This document shows positions 1 through 24,524 of a stretch of DNA of 64,000 nt, piece by piece (the stretch's first letter is position 1; every line of letters begins with the position of its first letter). Source of the stretch: Acidimicrobiia bacterium (GTDB lineage Bacteria > Actinomycetota > Acidimicrobiia > Acidimicrobiales > Poriferisodalaceae); assembly GCA_022820925.1 (NCBI GenBank), contig JAJEEO010000012.1:416594-480593 (forward strand). Direction: 5' to 3'. Both the position numbers and the translations under genes were made by a program. Under the pieces are notes generated by a model. The model searched no databases and was not told where the DNA came from. It saw only the letters and a program-made list of their open reading frames with translations.

Positions 1-1834
1 GCCCAGCATCGACAGGTCGCGCACGGCACCCCGGTCAGCACTGGTGGCCATCGCCGCGTAGGCCCGCAGTGCGGTGCTGACTTGGCGTGGGCGCGGCTCG
101 GCCGGCTGCCAGCCCGCCGCGTCCTGCTCGGCGCGGCGGCGCTCCAGCTCGTCGTCGTCGACTGCCAGATTGATCGTGCGGTTGGGGATGTCGATCTCGA
201 TGATGTCGCCGCTGCGCACCAGCCCGATCAGCCCGCCCGACGCAGCCTCGGGTGAGACATGCCCGATCGACAGCCCGGACGTGCCGCCCGAGAAGCGCCC
301 GTCGGTGACCAGGGCACACGCCTTGCCGAGACCCTTGGACTTCAGGTACGAGGTGGGGTACAGCATCTCCTGCATGCCAGGGCCGCCCCGCGGGCCCTCA
401 TAGCGCACGACTACGACGTCCCCGGCGACGACATCGCCGTCGAGGATGTGCTCGACCGCCTCGTCCTGGCTCTCGACCACATGGGCCGGGCCAGAGAACA
501 CCCAGATCGACTCGTCGACCCCGGCGGTCTTCACCACGCAGCCGTCGGGCGCGAGGTTGCCGTACAGGATCGCCAGCCCGCCGTCAGCGGAGTACGCGCA
601 GTCGACCGAGCGGATGCAGCCCCGCTCGCGGTCGAGATCCAGTGTGCGGTAGCGCTCGGACTGGCTGAACGCCACCTGCGTCGGGATGCCCGCCGGGCCG
701 GCCCGGAAGAACTCGGCCAGCGATGCATCGTCGTTGGTGGCCACGTCCCAGCGCGAGATGGCATCGAACATGGTCGGCGAATGCACCGTCGGCACCTGGT
801 TGGCGATGAGGCCCGCCCGGTTCAGCTCCGCCATGATCCCCATGACCCCGCCGGCGCGGTGCACGTCTTCCACGTGGAAGAACTCCGACGCCGGCGCCAC
901 CTTGCAGATGTTCGGCACCTTGCGCGACAGCCGATCGATATCGGCCATCGTGAAGTCGAGCTCCGCCTCCTGGGCCGCGGCCAGCAGGTGCAGGATCGTG
1001 TTGGTGGACCCTCCCATGGCGATGTCGAGCGTCATAGCGTTCTCGAACGCCTCGAAGCTGCCGATCGAACGCGGCAGCACCGATGCATCGTCTTCCTGGT
1101 AGTAGCGGCGGCACAGCTCGACCACCAGGCGACCGGCCTCGAGGAACAGCTCACGGCGGTCCGAATGGGTGGCCACCACGGTCCCGTTGCCGGGCAACGA
1201 CAGGCCCAGCGCCTCGGTCAGGCAGTTCATGGAGTTGGCCGTGAACATGCCCGAGCACGAACCGCACGTGGGACAGCCCGACCGCTCCATCTCGGCGACG
1301 TCCTCGTCGCTGACCGAGTCGTCGGCGGCCACCACCATCACGTTGATGAGGTCGACCTTCTGCGTGGCCAGCTTCGTCTTGCCGGCCTCCATCGGGCCGC
1401 CGGAAACGAACACCGTCGGAATGTTCAGCCGCATCGCGGCGTTGAGCATCCCCGGGGTGATCTTGTCGCAGTTGGAGATGCACACCAGCGCATCGGCGCA
1501 GTGGGCATTCACCATGTACTCGACGGCGTCAGCGATGAGGTCGCGCGACGGCAGGCTGTAGAGCATCCCGTCGTGGCCCATGGCGATGCCGTCGTCGACG
1601 GCGATGGTGTTGAACTCCTTCGCCACGCCCCCGGCGGCCTCGATCTCACGGGCGACGAGCTGGCCCAAGTCCTTCAGATGGACATGGCCGGGCACGAACT
1701 GGGTGAACGAATTGGAGATGGCGATGATCGGCTTGCCGAAGTCCTCGTCGGTCATGCCGGTGGCACGCCACAAGGCTCGAGCCCCGGCCTGATTTCGGCC
1801 TGCTGTGGAGGTGACAGATCGGTAGCTCGGCATA
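1..1834 (-). CDS. ilvD: dihydroxy-acid dehydratase; C-terminal end runs off the left edge of the window
   Basis: Absent from the ORF track because there is no stop inside the window. Reverse complement of 1801-1834 reads [12 protein letters not shown], the canonical IlvD N-terminus. Reverse translation of 1-450 gives ...[58 protein letters not shown]..., the conserved IlvD/Edd C-terminal block. The + strand ORF 259..1869 is its antisense shadow. Confidence 0.93.
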
Positions 1835-1898: not shown

Positions 1899-3146
1899 AT
1901 GGCCCCACAGGACGATGCTGCGGACGACGACGCGCCGAAGGACACGATCCTCATCCGGGTGACAGGTCCCGACGGCCCGGGCATCACCACCGATCTGCTG
2001 GCCTTGCTCTCGAATGCTGGCGCCGATGTGCAGGACATGGAACAGGTCGTCGTCCGCCGCCAGCTCACGCTCGGGCTCGCGATCACGGTGCCCGCAGGCC
2101 GAGACCTAGTCAAGGAGGTGCTGCTGTTCGGCTACGAGCGGGGCCTGGAGATGAACTTCGAGGTCGTCGACGCCACGCCGACCCGGCATGCGGAGCGCCT
2201 CGTGGTCACCGCCCTGGCGCCCGAGCTCAAGCCCGCCGACCTGTCGGTCGTGACCGGGGCCATCGCCACCAGCGGCGGGAACATCGACCGCATTCACCGG
2301 CTCTCCCGCTTCCCGGTCTGGAGCTACGAGTTCCTGGTCGAGGGTGCCGAGGGCGACAAGCTCCGCACCGATCTGATCGAGGTGGCCGCTGAGCGCCGGA
2401 TCGACATCGCCGTGCAGCCGCACGGTCTGTCACGGCGTTCGACCCGCATGATCGTGATGGACGTGGACTCGACTCTGATCCGCGACGAGGTGATCGACCT
2501 GCTGGCCGCCGAGGCCGGGCACGAGGCCCGTTCGGCGGAGCTGACCGCCGCGGCGATGGCCGGCGAGATCGACTTCGAGACATCGCTGCGCAAGCGGGTG
2601 AGGCTGCTGACCGGCCAGCCGGTCTCGATCATCGACACGGCCATCGTGCACATGAATCTCACGCGGGGCGCCCGCACGTTTGCCCGCACCCTGAAGCGTC
2701 TGGGCTACAAGGTGGCGATCATCTCCGGCGGCTTCACGCACTTCACCGATCACCTGGCGACGCGGTTCAAGTTCGACCACGCCTACGCCAACGAGCTCGA
2801 GATCCGCGACGGCCGGCTGACCGGTGAGGTGGTCGGCGAAGTCATCGACGCTGAGGCCAAGGCGCGGCTGCTGCGCCAGCTCGCGTACATCGAGGGCGTG
2901 CCGCTGGAGCAGATCGTGGCGGTTGGCGACGGGGCCAACGACCTGCCCATGCTGACAGCGGCTGGGCTCGGGATCGCCTTCAACGCCAAGCCGGTGGTTG
3001 CCGATGCGGCGGACACCACGGTGAACGTGCCGTACCTGGACGCGATCCTGTTCATGCTGGGCGTCACACGGGAGGAAGTCGAAGCCGCCGACGCCTCGAC
3101 GACGCCGCTGCATGCCGAGCGGCCGCTCTCGTCGCTGCTGCCGTAG
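1899..3146 (+). CDS. serB: phosphoserine phosphatase with N-terminal ACT-like regulatory region
   Basis: 415-aa ORF. HAD motifs are present: MIVMDVDSTLI (DxDxT) and VAVGDGANDLPML. The N-terminus ILIRVTGPDGPGITTDLLALLS is ACT-like, as in actinobacterial SerB2. Confidence 0.9.
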   Translation: MAPQDDAADDDAPKDTILIRVTGPDGPGITTDLLALLSNAGADVQDMEQVVVRRQLTLGLAITVPAGRDLVKEVLLFGYERGLEMNFEVVDATPTRHAERLVVTALAPELKPADLSVVTGAIATSGGNIDRIHRLSRFPVWSYEFLVEGAEGDKLRTDLIEVAAERRIDIAVQPHGLSRRSTRMIVMDVDSTLIRDEVIDLLAAEAGHEARSAELTAAAMAGEIDFETSLRKRVRLLTGQPVSIIDTAIVHMNLTRGARTFARTLKRLGYKVAIISGGFTHFTDHLATRFKFDHAYANELEIRDGRLTGEVVGEVIDAEAKARLLRQLAYIEGVPLEQIVAVGDGANDLPMLTAAGLGIAFNAKPVVADAADTTVNVPYLDAILFMLGVTREEVEAADASTTPLHAERPLSSLLP

Positions 3147-3200: not shown

Positions 3201-3560
3201 ATGGCCGAGGTGACGATCTACCACAACCCGCATTGAAACTCTTCCCGGAACGCCTTGGCGGTCGCCGAGGAAGCTGGAGTCGAGGCCGATGTCGTTCTGT
3301 ATATGAAGACGCCGCCCGACCGGGAGACACTCGAGCACTTGGTGTCGATACTCGAGGACCCCGTCGAAGACCTAGTGCGCAAGGACTCGCAGTTCAAGAA
3401 GCTGAGCCTGAACGCCGACGACTACGTCGACAACCCCGGCGCAGTGGTGGAGCTGCTGAGCCAGCGCAAGGCGCTCATGCAGCGCCCGGTGGTCGTACGC
3501 GGCAACCGCGCCATCGTCGGACGTCCGAAGGGTCGCATCGCCGAGCTCCTGGCCGACTGA
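3201..3560 (+). CDS. ArsC/Spx-family thiol reductase with in-frame UGA at the catalytic Cys position (candidate selenoprotein; alternatively a nonsense pseudogene)
   Basis: ATG at 3201 reads MAEVTIYHNPH, then TGA (3234-3236), then NSSRNALAVAEEAGVEADVVLYMKTPPDRETL..., in the same frame as track ORF 3255..3560. It aligns with E. coli ArsC MSNITIYHNPACGTSRNTLEMIRNSGTEPTIILYLENPPSRDEL, so the TGA falls on Cys12. A stem-loop starts 5 nt after the TGA. Confidence 0.7.
3241..3273 (+). promoter_or_regulatory. SECIS-like stem-loop downstream of the ArsC-family UGA
   Basis: CTTCC (3241-3245) pairs with GGAAG (3269-3273). CGG (3246-3248) pairs with CCG (3265-3267), leaving A3268 bulged. The apical stem is CGC/GCG around loop CUUG (3251-3260). 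Paired by hand, not energy-evaluated. Confidence 0.4.
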
Positions 3561-3577
3561 CTGACACGCACCGGTTG

Positions 3578-4717
3578 ATGACTGACGCCACCGGCGGCGT
3601 ACGCACCCCGCTGTTCGACCTGCACACCGAACTCGGCGGCCGGATGGTCAACTTCGGCGGCCACGCGCTTCCCATGCGCTACGGCGACGGCACCGTGGCC
3701 GAGCACCGCGCCACCCGCACGGCGGCAGGGCTGTTCGACGTCAGCCACATGGGCATTGTCGAGTTGCATCCCTCGGGCGCTGACGAGGTCGGCGATGTGG
3801 CAGCCTGGCTGGAAGGTTGCGTGCCGGGCGCCGTGACCAGCCTCGTGCCGGGACGGATGCGCTACACGCTGTTCACCACGGCGGCAGGCGGCGTGCTCGA
3901 CGACCTGATCGTGTCCTGTCATTCCGATCGGCTGCGCATTGTGGTCAATGCGGTGCGCACCGAGGCCGACCTGTCGATGCTGCGGGCAGTCAACGGCGGC
4001 GACGACGGCGACGTGCGCATCGAGGCGCGCACCGATCTGGCGCTGGTGGCGCTGCAGGGTCCAGCGGCGGCCGGCGTGCTGGCTCGCTGGGTGCCAGAAG
4101 CCGCGGAGCTGGCGTTCATGACAACCGCCACGCTGTCGATCGACGGCGTGGAGTGCGAGATTTCCCGCTGCGGGTACACGGGCGAGGACGGGTTCGAAGT
4201 TGCCATTCCGGCGAGCGCGGCGACCCACGTAGCACGGCTGCTGCTGAGCGCTGACGAGGTTTCCCCCGCAGGGCTCGGCGCCCGCGACACGCTGCGCCTC
4301 GAAGCGGGCCTGCCGCTGGTGGGCCACGAGCTCACCGAGGCGACGACGCCAGCCGAGGCCGGCCTGGGCTGGTCGATCCCGAAGCGGCGGCGGGCCGAGG
4401 GCGGATTCCCCGGTGCGGACATCATCACGGCACAGCTTGCTGGCGGGCCGCCGCGCCAGCGGGTGGGCATCGCAGCCGAGGGCCGCCGGCCGATTCGCGA
4501 CGGCGCCGCGCTGCACACCTCAGACGGCACCGGCATCGGCATGGTGACGAGCGGCGGCTACGGACCGACCACCGAAGCGCCGATCGCCATGGCCTATGTG
4601 GCGACCGAGCATTCGGCTGACGGCACGGAGCTGTTTGCCGAAGGTCGCAAGGGCGCAGAGCCGTGCCGGGTGGCCCCGCTGCCATTTGTGGAGCACCGCT
4701 ACTGGCGGCCGTCGTGA
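3578..4717 (+). CDS. gcvT: glycine cleavage system aminomethyltransferase (T protein)
   Basis: The in-frame ATG at 3578 gives MTDATGGVRTPLFDLHTELGGRMVNFGGHALPMRYGDGTVAEHRATRTAAGLFDVSHMG..., typical GcvT. The upstream extension in track ORF 3233..4717 overlaps the ArsC-family gene and is Arg-rich junk. Confidence 0.93.
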   Translation: MTDATGGVRTPLFDLHTELGGRMVNFGGHALPMRYGDGTVAEHRATRTAAGLFDVSHMGIVELHPSGADEVGDVAAWLEGCVPGAVTSLVPGRMRYTLFTTAAGGVLDDLIVSCHSDRLRIVVNAVRTEADLSMLRAVNGGDDGDVRIEARTDLALVALQGPAAAGVLARWVPEAAELAFMTTATLSIDGVECEISRCGYTGEDGFEVAIPASAATHVARLLLSADEVSPAGLGARDTLRLEAGLPLVGHELTEATTPAEAGLGWSIPKRRRAEGGFPGADIITAQLAGGPPRQRVGIAAEGRRPIRDGAALHTSDGTGIGMVTSGGYGPTTEAPIAMAYVATEHSADGTELFAEGRKGAEPCRVAPLPFVEHRYWRPS

Positions 4718-4787: not shown

Positions 4788-7697
4788 ATGAGTGAACCCC
4801 CGGTACCCACGAGCCCAGAAGGGGCGTTCGCCGCACGCCACATCGGCCTGGGGCCTGACGACGTTGCTGTCATGCTCAAGCGGCTCGGGTTCGGCTCGCT
4901 CACTGAACTCGTCGATGCCGCCGTGCCTGCCGAGATCCGGATCGACGAGCCGATCGTGCTCGCAGGCATCGACCGGCCCCTCACCGAGACGGAAGCCACC
5001 GCGGCGATGCGCTGGCTGGCCAATGCCAACACGGCTGTGCACTCGTTGATCGGGCTGGGCTACTACGGCACGCTCACACCGGCCGTCATCCGGCGCGGCG
5101 TGCTGGAGGACCCGTCGTGGTACACGGCCTACACGCCGTACCAGCCCGAGATCTCCCAGGGGAGGCTCGAGGCGCTGCTCAACTACCAGACGATGGTGTG
5201 CGACCTGGTGGGCATGGAGATCGCCAACTCGTCGCTGCTGTGCGAGGGCACCGCTGCCGCCGAGGCGATGGCCATGGCCCGTCGCATCACACGCAGCGGG
5301 CCGGACTGCTTCTTCGTGGACGCCGACTGCCATCCCCAAGTCATCGACGTGGTGCAAACCCGTGCCCAGCCGATCGGCATCGACATCGTGGTGGGCGACC
5401 CGGCAACCGATCTGGCGCCGGCCGAGGTGTATGGCGCGTTGCTGGCCTATCCCGGCAGCAGCGGCGCTGTCCGCAGCCTTCAGCCGGCGATCGAAGCTCT
5501 GCACGACGCGGGAGCGATCGCAGCTGTCACCGCCGACCTGCTGGCGTGCTGCGTGCTGCAGCCGCCCGGCGAGCAGGGCGCCGACATCGTGGTGGGCAGC
5601 TCGCAGCGCTTCGGCGTGCCGCTCGGATTCGGCGGTCCGCATGCGGCATTCCTGGCGACCAGCGAGAAGCACCGGCGCTCGATGCCGGGACGGCTCGTGG
5701 GCGTCTCGGTGGATGCAGCCGGCAGGACCGCGTACCGGCTCGCGCTGCAGACCCGTGAGCAGCACATTCGGCGCGAGAAGGCCACCAGCAACATCTGCAC
5801 TGCGCAGGTGCTGCTGGCGGTGGTGGCCTCGATGTATGCGGTGTGGCACGGCCCCGACGGGCTGGCCGAGATCGCCGGGCGGGTGCACCGGCTGACCGCG
5901 GCGCTCGCCGCCGGCCTGCACAACCTGGGTCTGCGCGTGCGCAACGAGTCGTTCTTCGACACGCTGACGGTGGACGTGCCCGGCGCCGCCGATGGGGTGC
6001 TGGCCGCGGCGCTCGCGGCTGGTTTCAACCTGCACCGCATCGACGCCGACACGGTCGGCGTCTCGCTGGACGAGACCTGCGACGAATCGACGGTCGCGCA
6101 TCTGCTCGATGCGTTCGGGACCCTCGGGGACAGCGAGGCTCATGACAGCGTGTCGGTCGGAGCGCTGGCAGCCTCGGCGCCGTCGGGCATCGCCGACGAA
6201 CTGCTGCGCACCAGCGGGTACCTGACGCATCCCACGTTTCATGCACACCGCTCCGAGACCGAGATGATGCGCTACCTGCGCCGTCTGGCCTCGTACGACG
6301 TGGCGCTGGACCGGTCGATGATCCCGCTGGGCAGCTGCACGATGAAGCTCAATGCCGCAGCCGAGATGACCCCGGTGACCTGGCCGCAGTTCGCCGACAT
6401 CCACCCGTTCGCGCCCCCCGAGCAGTGGGAGGGCTACCGGCAGATCATCGCCGACCTCGAACGGTGGCTCGCGGCCGTCACCGGCTACGACGCCGTGTCA
6501 TTGCAGCCCAACGCCGGCTCCCAGGGCGAGCTGGCCGGGCTGCTCGCCATCCGCCGCTACCACGACGACCGCGGCGACGCCCACCGCACGGTGTGCCTCA
6601 TCCCCTCCTCCGCGCACGGCACCAACGCCGCGTCGGCCGTGATGGCCGGCATGCGGGTGGTGGTGGTGGGCTGCACCGACGACGGCGACGTCGACCTCGA
6701 CGACCTCGACGCCAAGATCGCCGAGCACGGCAATCAGCTCGCCGCATTCATGGCCACCTACCCCTCGACACATGGTGTCTATGAGGATGGCATCCGGCAG
6801 GTCTGTCTCAAGGTGCACGAAGCGGGCGGGCAGGTCTATGTGGACGGCGCCAACCTCAACGCTCTCGTCGGGCTCGCCGCGCCCGGCACGTTCGGCGCCG
6901 ACGTCAGCCATCTCAACCTGCACAAGACGTTCTGCATTCCCCACGGCGGCGGCGGGCCGGGCATCGGGCCGGTGGCGTGCCGCCTGCACCTGGCCAAGTA
7001 CCTGCCCAACCACCCGCTGGCACCCACTGCCGGCCCCGAGACCGGCCCGGGCGCGATCTCGTCAGCGCCGTGGGGCTCCGCGGGCATCCTGCCGATCCCA
7101 TGGATGTACATCGCCATGATGGGCACAGACGGCCTCACCCAGGCCACCCAGACGGCGATCCTGTCCGCCAACTACCTGGCCTCCCGGCTCGGCGAGCACT
7201 TCCCGATCCTGTACCAGGGCCGCTACGGGCTGGTCGCGCATGAATGCATCGTGGACCTGCGGCCGTACTCGGAGTGGGCCAGCGTGGACGACGTGGCCAA
7301 GCGGCTCATCGACTTCGGCTTCCACGCCCCGACGATGTCGTTCCCGGTGGCGGGGACGCTGATGATCGAGCCCACCGAGAGCGAGTCGCTGTCGGAGATC
7401 GACCGGTTCTGCGATGCGATGGCGACGATCCGATCCGAGATCGACAAAGTTGCGGAAGGCGACTGGCCGGCCGACGACAACCCGCTCGCCAACGCTCCCC
7501 ACACGGCCATCGACGTGCTGGCCGACAAGTGGGAGCACCCCTACCCGCGCACCGAGGCCGCCTACCCGGCAGGCACGGGCGTGGCGACGCAGGTGGCAGA
7601 CAAGTACTGGCCGCCGGTCAGCCGCATCGACGGTGCCTACGGCGACCGCAACCTCATGTGCGCCTGCCCCGACCCCCGCGCCTTCGAGACTGACTAA
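4788..7697 (+). CDS. gcvP: glycine dehydrogenase (decarboxylating), single-chain P protein
   Basis: 969-aa ORF with GGAGG 8 nt upstream of the ATG. Contains [23 protein letters not shown] and the PLP-region block [16 protein letters not shown]. Confidence 0.97.
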
Positions 7698-7725: not shown

Positions 7726-8442
7726 ATGGCGCGGGTCAACCCATCGGTGCTCGAGATGCCGGACGATGATGCGGCCGGCACGATGCCGTACTTCTCCCAT
7801 ATCGATATGTGGCTGCGCGCCGAAGTAGACGGGCTGAGCGATGAGCAGCTCGATCTCGACGACCAGTCCCCCGACCGGGAGCTGATGTGGTGGTCGATCC
7901 GGCGGCAGATCAGCCACATCGCCTGGGTGTCGCTGATCTTCGCGAAGCGGCGCTGCGGGACGCTGCTGTGGCCCGACGGCGACATCCCCGAGCCCATCGT
8001 ATGGTCCGAGCATCACCAGGGACCCAACAACAAGCACGATCTGCGGCTGGATCCTGAGCTGTTCTGGGACGTGCCCGATCTGCTCGACAAGCTGGACCTG
8101 GGCCTGAGTTGGATGCGCTACGTGGTCGCGTCCCATCCGGTGGAGACCTTCCGCGAGATGGTGGAGTCACGTCACAGCACGCTCTTCTGGGACGACGCCA
8201 TCACGGTGCTGCCCCGGGGTGCTTGGCATGATCCCGACGACGAGCGGATGATCGTGAACACGCTCGAATGCGCGATCTGGATGCTGTTCTACGAGATGGC
8301 CTCGCACATCCGCTCCATTCAGCGGATCAAGGAGATCCAGGGGCTGGCTTCAGCGGTCGAGCTGACGCGCTTCGGCTACCTGCGCCTCCCCCACTACTGG
8401 GGCGAGACCGACGCCCCCGCGCCCAGCATCACCAAGCTGTGA
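7726..8442 (+). CDS. hypothetical protein (possibly a DinB-like helical bundle; not verified)
   Basis: 238-aa ORF with non-shadow composition (W/E/D/I-rich). Its stop overlaps the next gene's start (GTGA). I recognise no catalytic motif. Confidence 0.6.
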   Translation: MARVNPSVLEMPDDDAAGTMPYFSHIDMWLRAEVDGLSDEQLDLDDQSPDRELMWWSIRRQISHIAWVSLIFAKRRCGTLLWPDGDIPEPIVWSEHHQGPNNKHDLRLDPELFWDVPDLLDKLDLGLSWMRYVVASHPVETFREMVESRHSTLFWDDAITVLPRGAWHDPDDERMIVNTLECAIWMLFYEMASHIRSIQRIKEIQGLASAVELTRFGYLRLPHYWGETDAPAPSITKL

Positions 8443-9499: not shown

Positions 9500-10633
9500 G
9501 TGCCGACCCACAGCACTGCGAACAGCCCGGCATTCCGGCTGAGCCAGTACAGCCATGGTGCGGGCTGAGCGTGCAAGCTCGGGCCCTCCGAGCTGGCGCA
9601 GGTTCTGCGCCATCTGACTCCGCCGTCGCACCCGGACCTGCTGGTCGGCACTGACACCAGCGACGATGCCGCCGTGTGGCGGCTCGACGGCGACCGGCTG
9701 CTGGTGACATCGACTGATTTCTTCGCGCCGATTGTCGACGATGCGCGCACGTGGGGGCGCATTGCGGCCGCCAACGCCGCCAGCGACATCTACGCCATGG
9801 GCGCGAACCCACTGTTCGCTCTCAACCTGGCGGCCTGGCCCCGTGATGTGCTCCCGCTGGACCTGCTGGGCGAGGTGCTCGCCGGCGGTGCTGATGCCAC
9901 TGCTGACGGCGGCTGGGTGGTGGCCGGCGGTCACACCATCGACGCGCCCGAGCCGCTCTACGGCATGTCGGTCACCGGCACCATCGAGGCTGCCGGCGGC
10001 CAAACTGGCCTGCTGACCAACGCCGGCGGACAACCCGGCCAGGCACTCGTGCTCACCAAGCCGCTCGGCACCGGCCTGCTCGCGACCGCGCTGAAGCGTT
10101 CCGGCCCTGAAGCCACCGAGCTGGGCGGCGATCTGCACGCGGCGTATGCGGCCGGCGTAGCCGAGATGTGCAGGCTCAACGATGCGGCAGCCGCCGCTGC
10201 CATCAGCGCACGAGCGACTGCGGCCACCGATGTCACCGGATTCGGCCTGCTCGGACACCTGGCAGAGCTCGCTGCAGCCAGCGAGGTGAGTGCCGTGGTC
10301 GATGCCAGGGCAGTACCGCTATTGCCCGATGTCACCGGGCTTGCGACCGGCGGCTTCGTTCCGGGAGGCACTGGCCGCAACCTGGATCACCTCACTGAGC
10401 GTCTCGACGGCGGCGACGAGCTCACCCGCACCGTGCTTGGAGATCCGCAGACCTCGGGCGGCCTGCTGTTCGCCTGCGATCCCGCACGCGCCGGCGACGC
10501 TGTGCGCGAGCTGCGCGACAGCGGCCATGACGCCGCGGTGATCGGCGAACTCGCCGACGGCAGAAGCGGCACGGCGGGATCTATCACGATCGCGGGCGCC
10601 GTCACCGGAGACACCGCAACAGACGCAGGCTGA
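9500..10633 (+). CDS. selD: selenide, water dikinase (selenophosphate synthetase) with in-frame UGA (Sec) in the glycine-rich N-terminal loop
   Basis: Track ORF 8588..9568 ends ...AFRLSQYSHGAG at TGA 9566-9568. The same frame continues ACKLGPSELAQVLRHLTPPSHPDLLVGTDTSDDAAVWRLDG... into track ORF 9674..10633 (STDFFAPIVDD...). E. coli SelD reads [25 protein letters not shown], so the TGA aligns to Cys17; H. influenzae SelD has Sec at this position. The start is uncertain: GTG 9500 is preferred, and in-frame GTG 9434 is also possible. Confidence 0.85.
9576..9594 (+). promoter_or_regulatory. SECIS-like hairpin downstream of the selD UGA
   Basis: AGCTCGG (9576-9582) and CCGAGCT (9588-9594) are perfect reverse complements around loop GCCCT. 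The hairpin starts 7 nt after the TGA. Confidence 0.4.
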
Positions 10634-12296: not shown

Positions 12297-13763
12297 CTAC
12301 AGCTCGAGCAGGGCGTTCTCGATGACCTCGGTCAGCGCGGGGTGGATATAGAACTGCTCGCGGGCCATCTGGTCGACGGTCTGGCCGAAGGCCATGCCCT
12401 GTATGAGCTGCTGGATCAGGGTGGACGCCTGGGGGCCGATGATGTGTGCACCAAGCAGCTCGCGGGTCTCGGCATGCGCGATGAGCTTGGCAAAGCTGGC
12501 GGTGTCCTCCATCGCCCAGCCGTAGGCCGTGTGGCCGAAGGGCTTGTTGGCCACCGAGATCGGCAGGCCCTGCGCCCGGGCATCCCGCTCGGTGAGGCCG
12601 ACCGATGCGACCTGCGGGTGCGAGAACACTGCATGCGGAACCAGGTCTTCCCGGACGGTGCGCATGGGGCCCTCGGCTTGGCCCTCGGCCACCAGCAGGT
12701 TGTGCCTCAGCGCCCGCACCTGCGCGTTGGCGAGATGCTTGAGCTGGGTCTCGCTCGACAGGTCGCCGAAGGCCCACACACCCAGCGCCGAGGTGCGGTA
12801 GTACTCATCGGTCAGCACGCGGCCGTCGTCGTCATCCACTCCTGCGAGGTCGAGAGCGAGCTGATCGCCGTTGGGCACCCGACCGGTGGCCACCAGCAGC
12901 ACATCGGCACTCACCGACTCGGCGCTGCCATCGCGGGTGAACTCGACCGTGTAGGAGTTGCCCTGGGCACTCGGCGAGCCGTCGGCTGCGTACACAAAAT
13001 CCGCGGCACCGCCGCGCACTGTGCTGCCGGTCGCGGCTCCGCCGCGCACTGAGCTCACCGTCGCGCCGAGGCGCAGGTCGAAGTGGCGCTGCGCCGCCCT
13101 CGTGAACGCCGCAGACACATCGTCGTCCTCGGCCCGCAGCAGCCGCTCGCCCCGGTTCACCACCGTGACGTCGGTGCCCAGCGCCGAGAACACGTAGCCC
13201 AGCTCGCAGGCGATGTACCCGCCGCCGAGCACGATCATCGAGGTCGGCAGCGAGTCCAGCCGCATCACCGTGTCGGAGGTGTGAAACGGCACTGTGCCCA
13301 GACCCCGGTACGGCGGCACGAACGCACGAGCGCCGGCGCCGAGCACCACATGGCGCCCCGACACCGATTCGGTGCTGCCGTCGCCCATGCGCACCGCCAG
13401 GCGCCGGTCGCTGACGAAGCTTGCATCGCCCTCGAACACGGTGATGTTGGGACATTCGGCGCCGAAGCGGTAGTCGCGCCCGCCATTGGCGATGGGATCG
13501 ATGCGGCCGAAGACGCGATCCCGGATGGCGGGCCAGTCGGCGCTGCCAAAGCTGGCGGCGATGCCGTAGTCGCCCGCCGTTGCGATCGTGTCGGCCACAT
13601 CGGCCGCGTACACGAACATCTTGGAGGGAATGCAGCCCACGTTCAAGCAGGTGCCGCCGAACGTGCCGCGCTCGACGATCGCAATCGACCAGTCGTCGAA
13701 CTCGGGGCCGGGAATGGAATTGGCCGAGCCGGTACCGACGATGACCAAGTCGAAATCTGCCAT
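12297..13763 (-). CDS. FAD/NAD(P)-dependent disulfide oxidoreductase, mycothione-reductase-like
   Basis: N-terminus MADFDLVIVGTGSANS, and GGTCLNVGCIPSKMFVYAA carries the redox-active CxxxxC. The ATG at 13763 is preferred over the TTG at 13775. Confidence 0.85.
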   Translation of the reverse strand: MADFDLVIVGTGSANSIPGPEFDDWSIAIVERGTFGGTCLNVGCIPSKMFVYAADVADTIATAGDYGIAASFGSADWPAIRDRVFGRIDPIANGGRDYRFGAECPNITVFEGDASFVSDRRLAVRMGDGSTESVSGRHVVLGAGARAFVPPYRGLGTVPFHTSDTVMRLDSLPTSMIVLGGGYIACELGYVFSALGTDVTVVNRGERLLRAEDDDVSAAFTRAAQRHFDLRLGATVSSVRGGAATGSTVRGGAADFVYAADGSPSAQGNSYTVEFTRDGSAESVSADVLLVATGRVPNGDQLALDLAGVDDDDGRVLTDEYYRTSALGVWAFGDLSSETQLKHLANAQVRALRHNLLVAEGQAEGPMRTVREDLVPHAVFSHPQVASVGLTERDARAQGLPISVANKPFGHTAYGWAMEDTASFAKLIAHAETRELLGAHIIGPQASTLIQQLIQGMAFGQTVDQMAREQFYIHPALTEVIENALLEL

Positions 13764-13807
13764 GTGCGCAGTCAATCAGCGCTGCTCCCGAAGAGCAGCC
13801 GCCGCCA

Positions 13808-24092: not shown

Positions 24093-24524
24093 GTGGTGCC
24101 CATGGCTGGGCAATCTGAGACAGGTCGCGCTGTCACGTTCACCGAATCTGAGCTGCGCGAGCGGCTGACGCCGATGCAGTACCACGTCACCCAAGAGGCC
24201 GGGACTGAGCGCCCGTTCACGGGCGAGACATGGGACAACCACGATGTCGGCGCGTATCACTGCGTCGTGTGCGGCGCCGAGCTGTTCGACTCGGAGACCA
24301 AGTTCGAGAGCGGTTCCGGCTGGCCGAGCTTCACCCAGCCGGTCTCGGCCGAAGCGGTGGACACCGAGGTCGACCGCTCGTACGGCATGATCCGCACCGA
24401 GGTGATGTGCAAGGCCTGCGGGGCTCACCTGGGACACGTGTTCCCCGACGGTCCCCGTCCGACAGGCGACCGGTTCTGCATGAACTCGGCGTCGTTGCAG
24501 TTTGCGCCCTCCGAGGACGACTGA
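24093..24524 (+). CDS. msrB: peptide-methionine (R)-S-oxide reductase
   Basis: Contains [11 protein letters not shown]...GWPSF...[17 protein letters not shown]...RFCMNSASL. This covers the two CxxC zinc motifs and the catalytic Cys, which is an ordinary TGC codon. Confidence 0.93.

Follow-up and report, generated by a model that had tools for sequence, protein, structure and literature searches.

A predicted selenocysteine-containing ArsC-family protein encoded upstream of gcvT in sponge-associated and marine Acidimicrobiia

Introduction

The locus analyzed here raises the question of how a TGA triplet at the active-site position of an ArsC-family gene is read: as a stop, or as the codon for a catalytic selenocysteine (Sec). 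The gene, which we call arsC(U), lies in a 64,000-nt stretch of an Acidimicrobiia genome (assembly GCA_022820925.1, contig JAJEEO010000012.1, positions 416,594 to 480,593). This whole stretch is referred to as the window, and positions are those of the window unless another locus is named. A preliminary description, made from the sequence of the window, had proposed that an ArsC-family reductase starts at ATG 3201, carries TGA 3234 at the position of the catalytic Cys12 and uses this codon for Sec. The core of that proposal is upheld by four lines of evidence: the alternation of TGA and TGC at codon 12, the intactness of the orthologs, a covarying selenocysteine insertion sequence (SECIS) and a selD gene that has an in-frame UGA of its own. 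We infer from the sequence comparisons that Sec is inserted at codon 12. The product, ArsC(U), is very probably a selenoprotein, and to its fuller description as a Sec-decoded ArsC-family reductase we assign a probability of about 85%.

Results

Reading frame and family assignment

Translation from ATG 3201 yields a frame of 119 codons, in which TGA 3234-3236 is codon 12 and an ordinary TGA stop occupies 3558-3560. The N-terminal part reads MAEVTIYHNPH-TGA(3234-3236)-NSSRNALAVAEE. A mechanical list of open reading frames (ORFs) contains only the 3255-3560 piece of this gene, with a TTG start and 101 residues, as the preliminary description had pointed out. For matches to profiles and to the structure library, ArsC(U) was scored with Cys substituted at Sec12. 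Residues 7-115 match the Pfam ArsC family PF03960 with 51.9 bits (gathering score 24, E=9.8e-14). The closest solved structure is 3rdw, a 121-residue 'putative arsenate reductase' (E=4.9e-19), which we take to be a YfgD-like protein. The R773/E. coli ArsC structures 1i9d and 1jzw align with ArsC(U) from end to end (E~2e-16) and put residue 12 on Cys12; together with the translation, this alignment confirms both the frame and the position of the TGA within it. Spx structures give far weaker matches than ArsC structures (E~1e-7 to 1e-4, best 2e-7). Identity as a Spx/MgsR regulator was considered and rejected, as ArsC(U) has UxxS instead of CxxC and scores 48.2 with TIGR01617 against a cutoff of 75.05. 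By its sequence, ArsC(U) is placed in the glutaredoxin-type ArsC/YfgD branch of the ArsC family.

Conservation of the in-frame UGA

A scan of one genome per species produced 80 related loci with 71-98% amino-acid identity, and these together with the window make up a set of 81 sequences. The loci come from Candidatus (Ca.) Poriferisodalis, Ca. Poriferisodalaceae, other Acidimicrobiales and one Ca. Microthrix metagenome-assembled genome. Codon 12 is TGA in all 80 loci, each from the genome of a different species. Every locus gives one full-length tblastn match to ArsC(U) without a frameshift, and the decay of orthologs that would have spoken against the initial proposal is found in none of them.

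Among the 81 sequences, the protein encoded by codons 2-11, upstream of the TGA, is conserved (V4 91%, T5 93%, I6 99%, H8 100%, N9 98%, P10 94%), and synonymous variation of the same codons is normal (up to 1.7 bits). Because these codons are kept as amino acids and remain synonymously variable, they are under selection for translation in the 3201 frame, which excludes a pseudogene as well as a start confined to 3255. Furthermore, arsC(U) itself stops at TGA, so UGA is not reassigned genome-wide. Two marks of a selenoprotein gene are thus present: the UGA aligns with the Cys of homologs, and the frame is under purifying selection on both of its sides.

A conserved hairpin downstream of the UGA

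Comparative analysis revealed a hairpin at 3253-3270, inside the coding sequence (codons 18-23, A-L-A-V-A-E). Its arms, 3253-3259 and 3264-3270, enclose a loop made of nt 27-30, counting from the U of the UGA. The block GCCTTGGCGGTCGCCGAGG (3252-3270) is nearly invariant in all sequences, while the neighboring codons drift freely. Synonymous entropy of codons 18-23 amounts to 0.10, 0.48, 0, 0, 0.47 and 0.10 bits, respectively, compared with about 1.2-2.0 bits for most other conserved four- or six-fold degenerate residues of the gene. From a 40-sequence alignment RNAalifold predicts exactly the 3253-3270 structure. In the stem 99.3% of cells are paired, against 29-70% in controls with the 3' arm slid. 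Two stem pairs display compensatory double changes (G-C to A-U in 5/39 distinct sequences and C-G to U-A in 1/39), and G-U intermediates occur as well. A hairpin 3' of the UGA with a conserved G/GU in a small apical loop is what defines bacterial SECIS elements, and 3253-3270 has this form. It is the predicted SECIS of arsC(U).

The preliminary description had drawn attention to a 33-nt stem-loop at 3241-3273. When the window sequence is folded by itself, this is indeed the structure of minimum free energy (MFE; -13.7 kcal/mol, z=-1.28). As a conserved element it had to be rejected, since its outer helix is 59% paired in relatives, no better than in shuffles; the conserved and covarying hairpin after the UGA is the one at 3253-3270. 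Single-sequence folding of 3234-3300 gave no signal (z=-0.09), and the SECIS is visible only in comparative analysis.

The history of codon 12 can be followed together with that of the hairpin. Alternation of TGA with TGC, a comparison to which the preliminary description had pointed, is observed: two homologs, P0020 and P0040, have TGC. The first (L083:8001-8360, 73% identity) retains a fully intact SECIS block next to its TGC codon, and looks like the result of a recent Sec-to-Cys change that left a fossil SECIS behind. This Cys ortholog sits in another gene context, between YkuD and DNA_alkylation genes. The second, P0040, is a Gaiellales homolog in which the SECIS block is absent.

A second gene with an in-frame UGA

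A tblastn search of the window with E. coli SelD returned 9530-10576 (43% identity, E=2.5e-72). At the position where the E. coli protein has SHGAG-C17-GCK, the window reads SHGAG-TGA(9566-9568)-ACK; the ORF track again contains only the part downstream of the TGA, 9674-10633. The same query matches 33 of the related loci, roughly 5-8 kb downstream of arsC (6 kb in the window), and the Cys17 codon is TGA in 33/33 of these syntenic loci. Two adjacent hairpins follow the UGA, at 9576-9594 and 9595-9611, and are candidates for the SECIS of this gene. In 34 sequences they are paired in 94.8% and 99.4% of cells, respectively, with little covariation; in the loop of 9595-9611 the G is invariant and the U nearly so. 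UGA at the Cys17 position (SHGAG-U-xCK) is a feature shared with the Sec-SelD of many bacteria, and SelD has been described as a selenoprotein in many organisms (PMC13326102).

The presence of selD, one of the marks of a genome that makes selenoproteins, with a UGA at Cys17 indicates that the genome uses selenium. As a neighboring gene, it provides in-cis evidence for the selenium trait. In the window, UGA thus occupies the place of a catalytic Cys in two genes, and the product of one of them, selD, makes the selenium donor. An Rfam scan of the window reported no SECIS, glycine riboswitch or tRNA-Sec. A search of the window for other genes interrupted by an in-frame TGA, based on GC content at third codon positions, returned adjacent-gene artifacts only, and it has little weight because it missed selD and arsC too. 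According to Table S4 of PMC5649159, SelA and SelB COGs occur in most sponge symbiont bins; one Acidimicrobiia bin has SelA 2, SelB 1 and SelD 1, and another Acidimicrobiia bin has SelD only. We infer that selA, selB and selC are present in the genome, for which the sponge study offers indirect support. Coordinates of these and other features are listed in Table 1.

Table 1. Features of the arsC(U) locus and riboswitches of related loci (positions refer to the window unless a locus is given)
Feature	Position	Strand	Basis and remarks
arsC(U), predicted ArsC-family (YfgD/ArsC-like) selenoprotein gene, motif U12-N-S-S15 (UxxS)	3201..3560	+	Translation, Pfam, TIGR00014, PDB matches, intact orthologs in 80 loci
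In-frame UGA, predicted Sec12, aligned to catalytic Cys12 of E. coli ArsC	3234..3236	+	TGA in 81/81 sequences; TGC in P0020, P0040
Predicted SECIS hairpin, 7-bp stem CCUUGGC/GCCGAGG, apical loop GGUC (3260-3263)	3253..3270	+	RNAalifold, pairing, synonymous entropy
selD(U), selenophosphate synthetase, itself a predicted selenoprotein gene	about 9500..10633	+	tblastn with E. coli SelD; GTG start near 9500 uncertain
In-frame UGA of selD, Cys17 position	9566..9568	+	TGA in 33/33 loci
Two adjacent conserved hairpins 3' of the selD UGA, candidate SECIS	9576-9594, 9595-9611	+	Fold and pairing over 34 sequences
serB-like phosphoserine phosphatase (ACT-ACT-HAD)	1899..3146	+	Pfam; 54 nt upstream of arsC(U); syntenic in 28 loci
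gcvT, aminomethyltransferase	3578..4717	+	Pfam GCV_T, GCV_T_C
gcvP, glycine dehydrogenase (decarboxylating)	4788..7697	+	Pfam GDC-P, GcvP2_C
238-aa conserved ORF	7726-8442		No Pfam match; next after gcvP
Pyridine-nucleotide disulfide oxidoreductase	12297-13775	-	Could be L-protein or thiol-disulfide reductase
ilvD, dihydroxy-acid dehydratase	1-1830	-	Runs off the left window edge
Glycine riboswitch RF00504	L031:10575-10671		Between arsC(U) and gcvT
Glycine riboswitch RF00504	L050:10096-10197		Between arsC(U) and gcvT
Glycine riboswitch RF00504	L057:10497-10599		Between arsC(U) and gcvT
Glycine riboswitch RF00504	L066:5341-5438		Between arsC(U) and gcvT

Catalytic residues and proposed mechanism

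Seven residues of ArsC(U), H8, U12, S14, S15, R60, R95 and R108, are invariant in the 81 sequences. The three arginines align with R60, R94 and R107 of the ArsC structures. In ArsC, arginines 60, 94 and 107 form an oxyanion site around the Cys12 nucleophile, and the combination of a nucleophile at position 12 with the Arg60/Arg94/Arg107 triad that characterizes glutaredoxin-type arsenate reductases is found in ArsC(U) in full. Invariance of the equivalents of these arginines makes it likely that the protein reduces an oxyanion in the manner of ArsC, with a selenolate as the nucleophile.

On this model, translation would initiate at ATG 3201, and UGA 3234 would be recoded to Sec by SelB and Sec-tRNA(Sec) under the direction of the hairpin at 3253-3270. 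Termination at the ordinary UGA stop at 3558 would then give a 119-residue selenoprotein. Selenophosphate for Sec synthesis would be supplied by the SelD encoded 6 kb downstream, itself a putative Sec enzyme. In the folded protein Sec12 would take the place of the nucleophilic Cys12, beside the oxyanion-binding arginines R60, R95 and R108. Its selenolate would attack the bound oxyanion, for which arsenate is the default candidate, and the adduct would be resolved by a thiol/redoxin system. Glutathione is not typical of Actinomycetota. An ArsC-type mechanism acting on an oxyanion, most plausibly arsenate, is what these residues point to. That ArsC(U) serves as an arsenate reductase in vivo is a narrower claim, and we regard it as somewhat favored.

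Gene neighborhood

The local gene order is ilvD (on the minus strand), serB, arsC(U), gcvT, gcvP, the 238-aa gene without a known family, a nucleoside hydrolase gene, selD(U), a cytidylyltransferase-like gene and a 2OG-Fe oxygenase gene. The ATG of gcvT at 3578 follows the arsC(U) stop by 17 nt, the distance given originally. A 536-aa plus-strand ORF at 259-1869 was rejected as a gene, being a shadow of the minus-strand ilvD without a Pfam match. The genes gcvT and gcvP are adjacent, and no gcvH lies between or beside them in the window.

In the related loci gcvT is found downstream of arsC(U) in 41 cases out of 80 (in 36 of them at 300-600 nt from the arsC start), and in 33 loci selD belongs to the same block as arsC(U)-gcvT. 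The other 39 loci have different neighbors, typically a P-II nitrogen-regulatory gene upstream and a conserved 250-330-aa gene of unknown function downstream; in L040:9597-9935, L055:9650-9988, L077:9602-9961 and L087:5543-5881 both of these flank arsC(U) directly.

In four of the loci with gcvT, all of them more distant relatives (L031, L050, L057 and L066), arsC(U) and gcvT are separated by a glycine riboswitch (RF00504, 60-64 bits). In these relatives gcvT consequently has its own glycine-responsive leader, and this is an argument against counting arsC as part of the gcv unit in them. No glycine riboswitch was found by Rfam in the window, where the arsC-gcvT gap (3561-3577) is only 17 nt long. 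From this comparison, the sponge-symbiont lineage seems to have lost the control of gcvTP by a riboswitch. A promoter/terminator consensus scan detected no terminator between 1700 and 8500, and the stretch up to 8223 lacked any promoter-like site, which is weak evidence in a high-GC actinobacterium. Co-transcription of arsC(U) and gcvT in the Poriferisodalis lineage is plausible. The unusual pairing with gcvT that the preliminary description had emphasized therefore stands as adjacency, in the window and in 41 of the 80 loci. It does not extend to function: with gcvT adjacent in about half of the loci and a riboswitch intervening in four, the arrangement is one of conserved gene order and gives no evidence of a shared role.

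Two observations concern other parts of the neighborhoods. In an Acidimicrobiia chromosome (OZ244163.1), 21 tRNA genes are packed into 2.7 kb (L035:14237-16940) about 4 kb downstream of arsC(U). In the window, a MsrB (SelR-domain) methionine sulfoxide reductase is encoded at 24093-24524 by an uninterrupted ORF, which adjoins a MerR-family regulator gene on the opposite strand.

Annotation of ArsC(U) homologs in databases

Of the 120 protein clusters closest to ArsC(U), more than half (67/120) are N-terminally shortened calls of 85-107 residues. Among the names under which these appear are 'hypothetical protein', 'arsenate reductase' and also 'ArsC/Spx/MgsR family protein'. Full-length proteins with Cys at position 12 make up 36/120 clusters, P0020 and P0040 included. 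The remaining 17/120 are full-length proteins with Trp at position 12, that is, TGA was called as Trp (HNPHWGSS...). This set consists of P0033, P0100 and 15 other clusters, and P0100 alone has 369 member sequences. The Trp at the Sec codon presumably comes from contigs called under genetic code 4/25. Low-GC marine relatives of Sec-ArsC seem to be abundant.

Comparison with known systems

ArsC proteins with Sec are not new. The Sargasso Sea survey (Zhang, Fomenko & Gladyshev 2005, PMC1088965) describes a UxxS arsenate reductase as a new selenoprotein family with 14 sequences (COG1393), and the Global Ocean Sampling survey (Zhang & Gladyshev 2008, PMC2398784) lists 'ArsC 1' with 77 sequences (pfam03960, UxxS). 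A 2026 review (PMC13188914) includes an arsenate reductase selenoprotein under TIGR00014/UxxS. The statement in the preliminary description that ArsC-like selenoproteins had emerged from metagenomic surveys was correct. The 'ArsC 1' UxxS family is defined there by PF03960 and by Sec in UxxS, and ArsC(U) has both (U12-N13-S14-S15, with S15 invariant). Other points of likeness to the family are Sec in place of the catalytic Cys, a marine origin, widespread Cys homologs, and a bacterial SECIS directly downstream with a G in its small apical loop. Relative to that description nothing essential is different; arsC(U) comes from sponge-associated/marine Acidimicrobiia (Ca. Poriferisodalis-like). ArsC(U) is thus a further, well-supported member of the predicted UxxS family, placed there by the family definition; published sequences of the family include AACY01238341 and MBT3519430.1. 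The passages of PMC1088965, PMC2398784 and PMC13188914 available to us do not mention the serB-arsC-gcvTP...selD context, the exact SECIS or the conservation in 80 species. A literature search for 'Poriferisodalis' found nothing.

With R773/E. coli ArsC (1i9d, 1jzw), the protein is collinear over residues 1-118 and shares the HNPxC/U-xxSR active-site loop. It differs in having Sec instead of Cys12, in length (119 versus 141 residues), in the absence of the C-terminal extension and in lying outside an ars operon. Short YfgD-like proteins, such as 3rdw, resemble ArsC(U) in length class, in active-site residues and in being encoded by stand-alone genes outside ars operons, but they carry Cys where ArsC(U) has Sec. 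To our knowledge, the function of YfgD-like proteins has not been defined. The SECIS is similar to that of E. coli fdhF, the archetype of bacterial SECIS elements: both are hairpins in the coding sequence directly 3' of the UGA, and the apical loop GGUC is identical. In arsC(U), however, the loop is 5 nt farther from the U of the UGA (nt 27-30 versus 22-25), the stem is a perfect 7 bp and lacks the bulged U seen in fdhF, and a lower stem is not conserved.

Alternative readings

Several results weigh against a Sec-decoded arsenate-type reductase. Concerning the family and the substrate, ArsC(U) scores 94.2 bits with TIGR00014 (glutaredoxin-type arsenate reductase), which is below the equivalog cutoff of 106.05, and we know of no demonstrated activity for the nearest structure, 3rdw. 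Neither the first 25 kb of the window nor the annotated related neighborhoods contain arsR, arsB, acr3 or arsM. The ars operon context used for recognizing arsenate reductases is thus missing; context of this kind helps to classify ArsC proteins and is not strictly defining. Since no ars genes lie nearby, the case for arsenate as the physiological substrate comes from residue conservation. Concerning Sec decoding, tblastn with E. coli SelA and SelB gave no match in the 64-kb window or in the related loci (1.4 Mb), and no tRNA-Sec was reported by ARAGORN for the window or for 60 of the loci. In addition, for the window sequence alone MFE favors the 3241-3273 fold over the SECIS hairpin by about 2 kcal/mol.

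The alternative that survives best accepts the selenoprotein and the ArsC fold, and regards the protein as a housekeeping selenol-based reductase (YfgD-like) rather than an arsenate-detoxifying enzyme. Its substrate would be another oxyanion, or a protein or low-molecular-weight disulfide, and a connection of the gene with serine/glycine/one-carbon metabolism (serB-arsC-gcvTP) or with selenium assimilation (synteny with selD) is conceivable. The lack of ars genes, the TIGR00014 score and the uncharacterized nearest structure agree with this view. It is also in line with the arsC(U)-gcvT-gcvP-...-selD(U) arrangement, which persists in 33-41 loci even where the neighboring proteins are only about 60% identical, and with the short arsC-gcvT gap, in which no terminator is predicted. 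However, the full ArsC catalytic set (the nucleophile, R60 and the equivalents of R94 and R107) is invariant, the 39 loci with other contexts (e.g. a P-II gene before arsC(U) and a 328-aa gene of unknown function after it) lack this order, and a riboswitch separates arsC(U) from gcvT in four loci. Moreover, it is common for a chromosomal arsC gene to lie outside an ars operon. On balance we consider a housekeeping role possible but less likely than not.

A stronger version of the same idea appears doubtful. Here Sec-ArsC would be a selenol-based reductase with no part in arsenic detoxification, tied in its function to the conserved block serB-arsC(U)-gcvT-gcvP-...-selD(U) that Poriferisodalaceae share with related Acidimicrobiales. 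If this were true, it might process a selenium oxyanion or a selenotrisulfide before SelD acts, or have a serine/glycine/one-carbon role, and loss of the riboswitch in the sponge-symbiont lineage would have fused arsC(U) into the gcv transcription unit.

It is even less probable that UGA 3234 is read through as a residue other than Sec, either as Cys by a SelB-like factor and a tRNA(UCA), or as Trp or Gly by reassignment or a suppressor. A few bacteria are reported to insert Cys at UGA by means of selC-like tRNAs, and there are the 17 database clusters with Trp at this position, an effect of gene calling under code 4/25. A general reassignment is contradicted by the TGA at which the same gene ends. 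Furthermore, both recoded UGAs fall exactly on the catalytic Cys of families with known Sec forms, ArsC and SelD; downstream of the arsC(U) UGA comes a hairpin of canonical SECIS type, with GGUC as its loop; and selD, the maker of the selenium donor, is present and conserved.

Finally, a genuine stop at the TGA, leaving either a pseudogene or a 101-aa protein started at TTG 3255 and devoid of the active site, deserves hardly any credence: automatic callers do give exactly such models (101, 93 and 85 aa) for most close homologs, but the TGA and the 11 codons upstream are conserved in 80/80 species with few non-synonymous changes, the active-site loop residues H8, N9 and P10 are retained upstream of it, TTG 3255 is conserved as part of the hairpin and the variable starts of the callers offer no consistent alternative, and all three arginines are invariant in what would be a shortened protein without a nucleophile.

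Implications

The existence of Sec-ArsC is itself no novelty, as UxxS selenoproteins of the ArsC family had been predicted in 2005 and again in 2008. Added here are a SECIS with covariation across 80 species, a lineage (sponge-associated/marine Acidimicrobiia), a Sec-SelD encoded in cis, a fossil SECIS in a Cys revertant and the extent of mis-annotation. The main relevance is for annotation and selenoproteome accounting, because database entries that are shortened or read with Trp hide the active-site selenocysteine. With its nearly invariant and covarying 18-nt hairpin, the locus also offers a clean example of a SECIS, and Sec-ArsC is a well-defined candidate for enzymology aimed at what Sec adds to ArsC chemistry. 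For the organisms themselves, the predicted consequence is that at least two selenoprotein genes, for ArsC and SelD, lie in one conserved block in abundant sponge-associated Acidimicrobiia.

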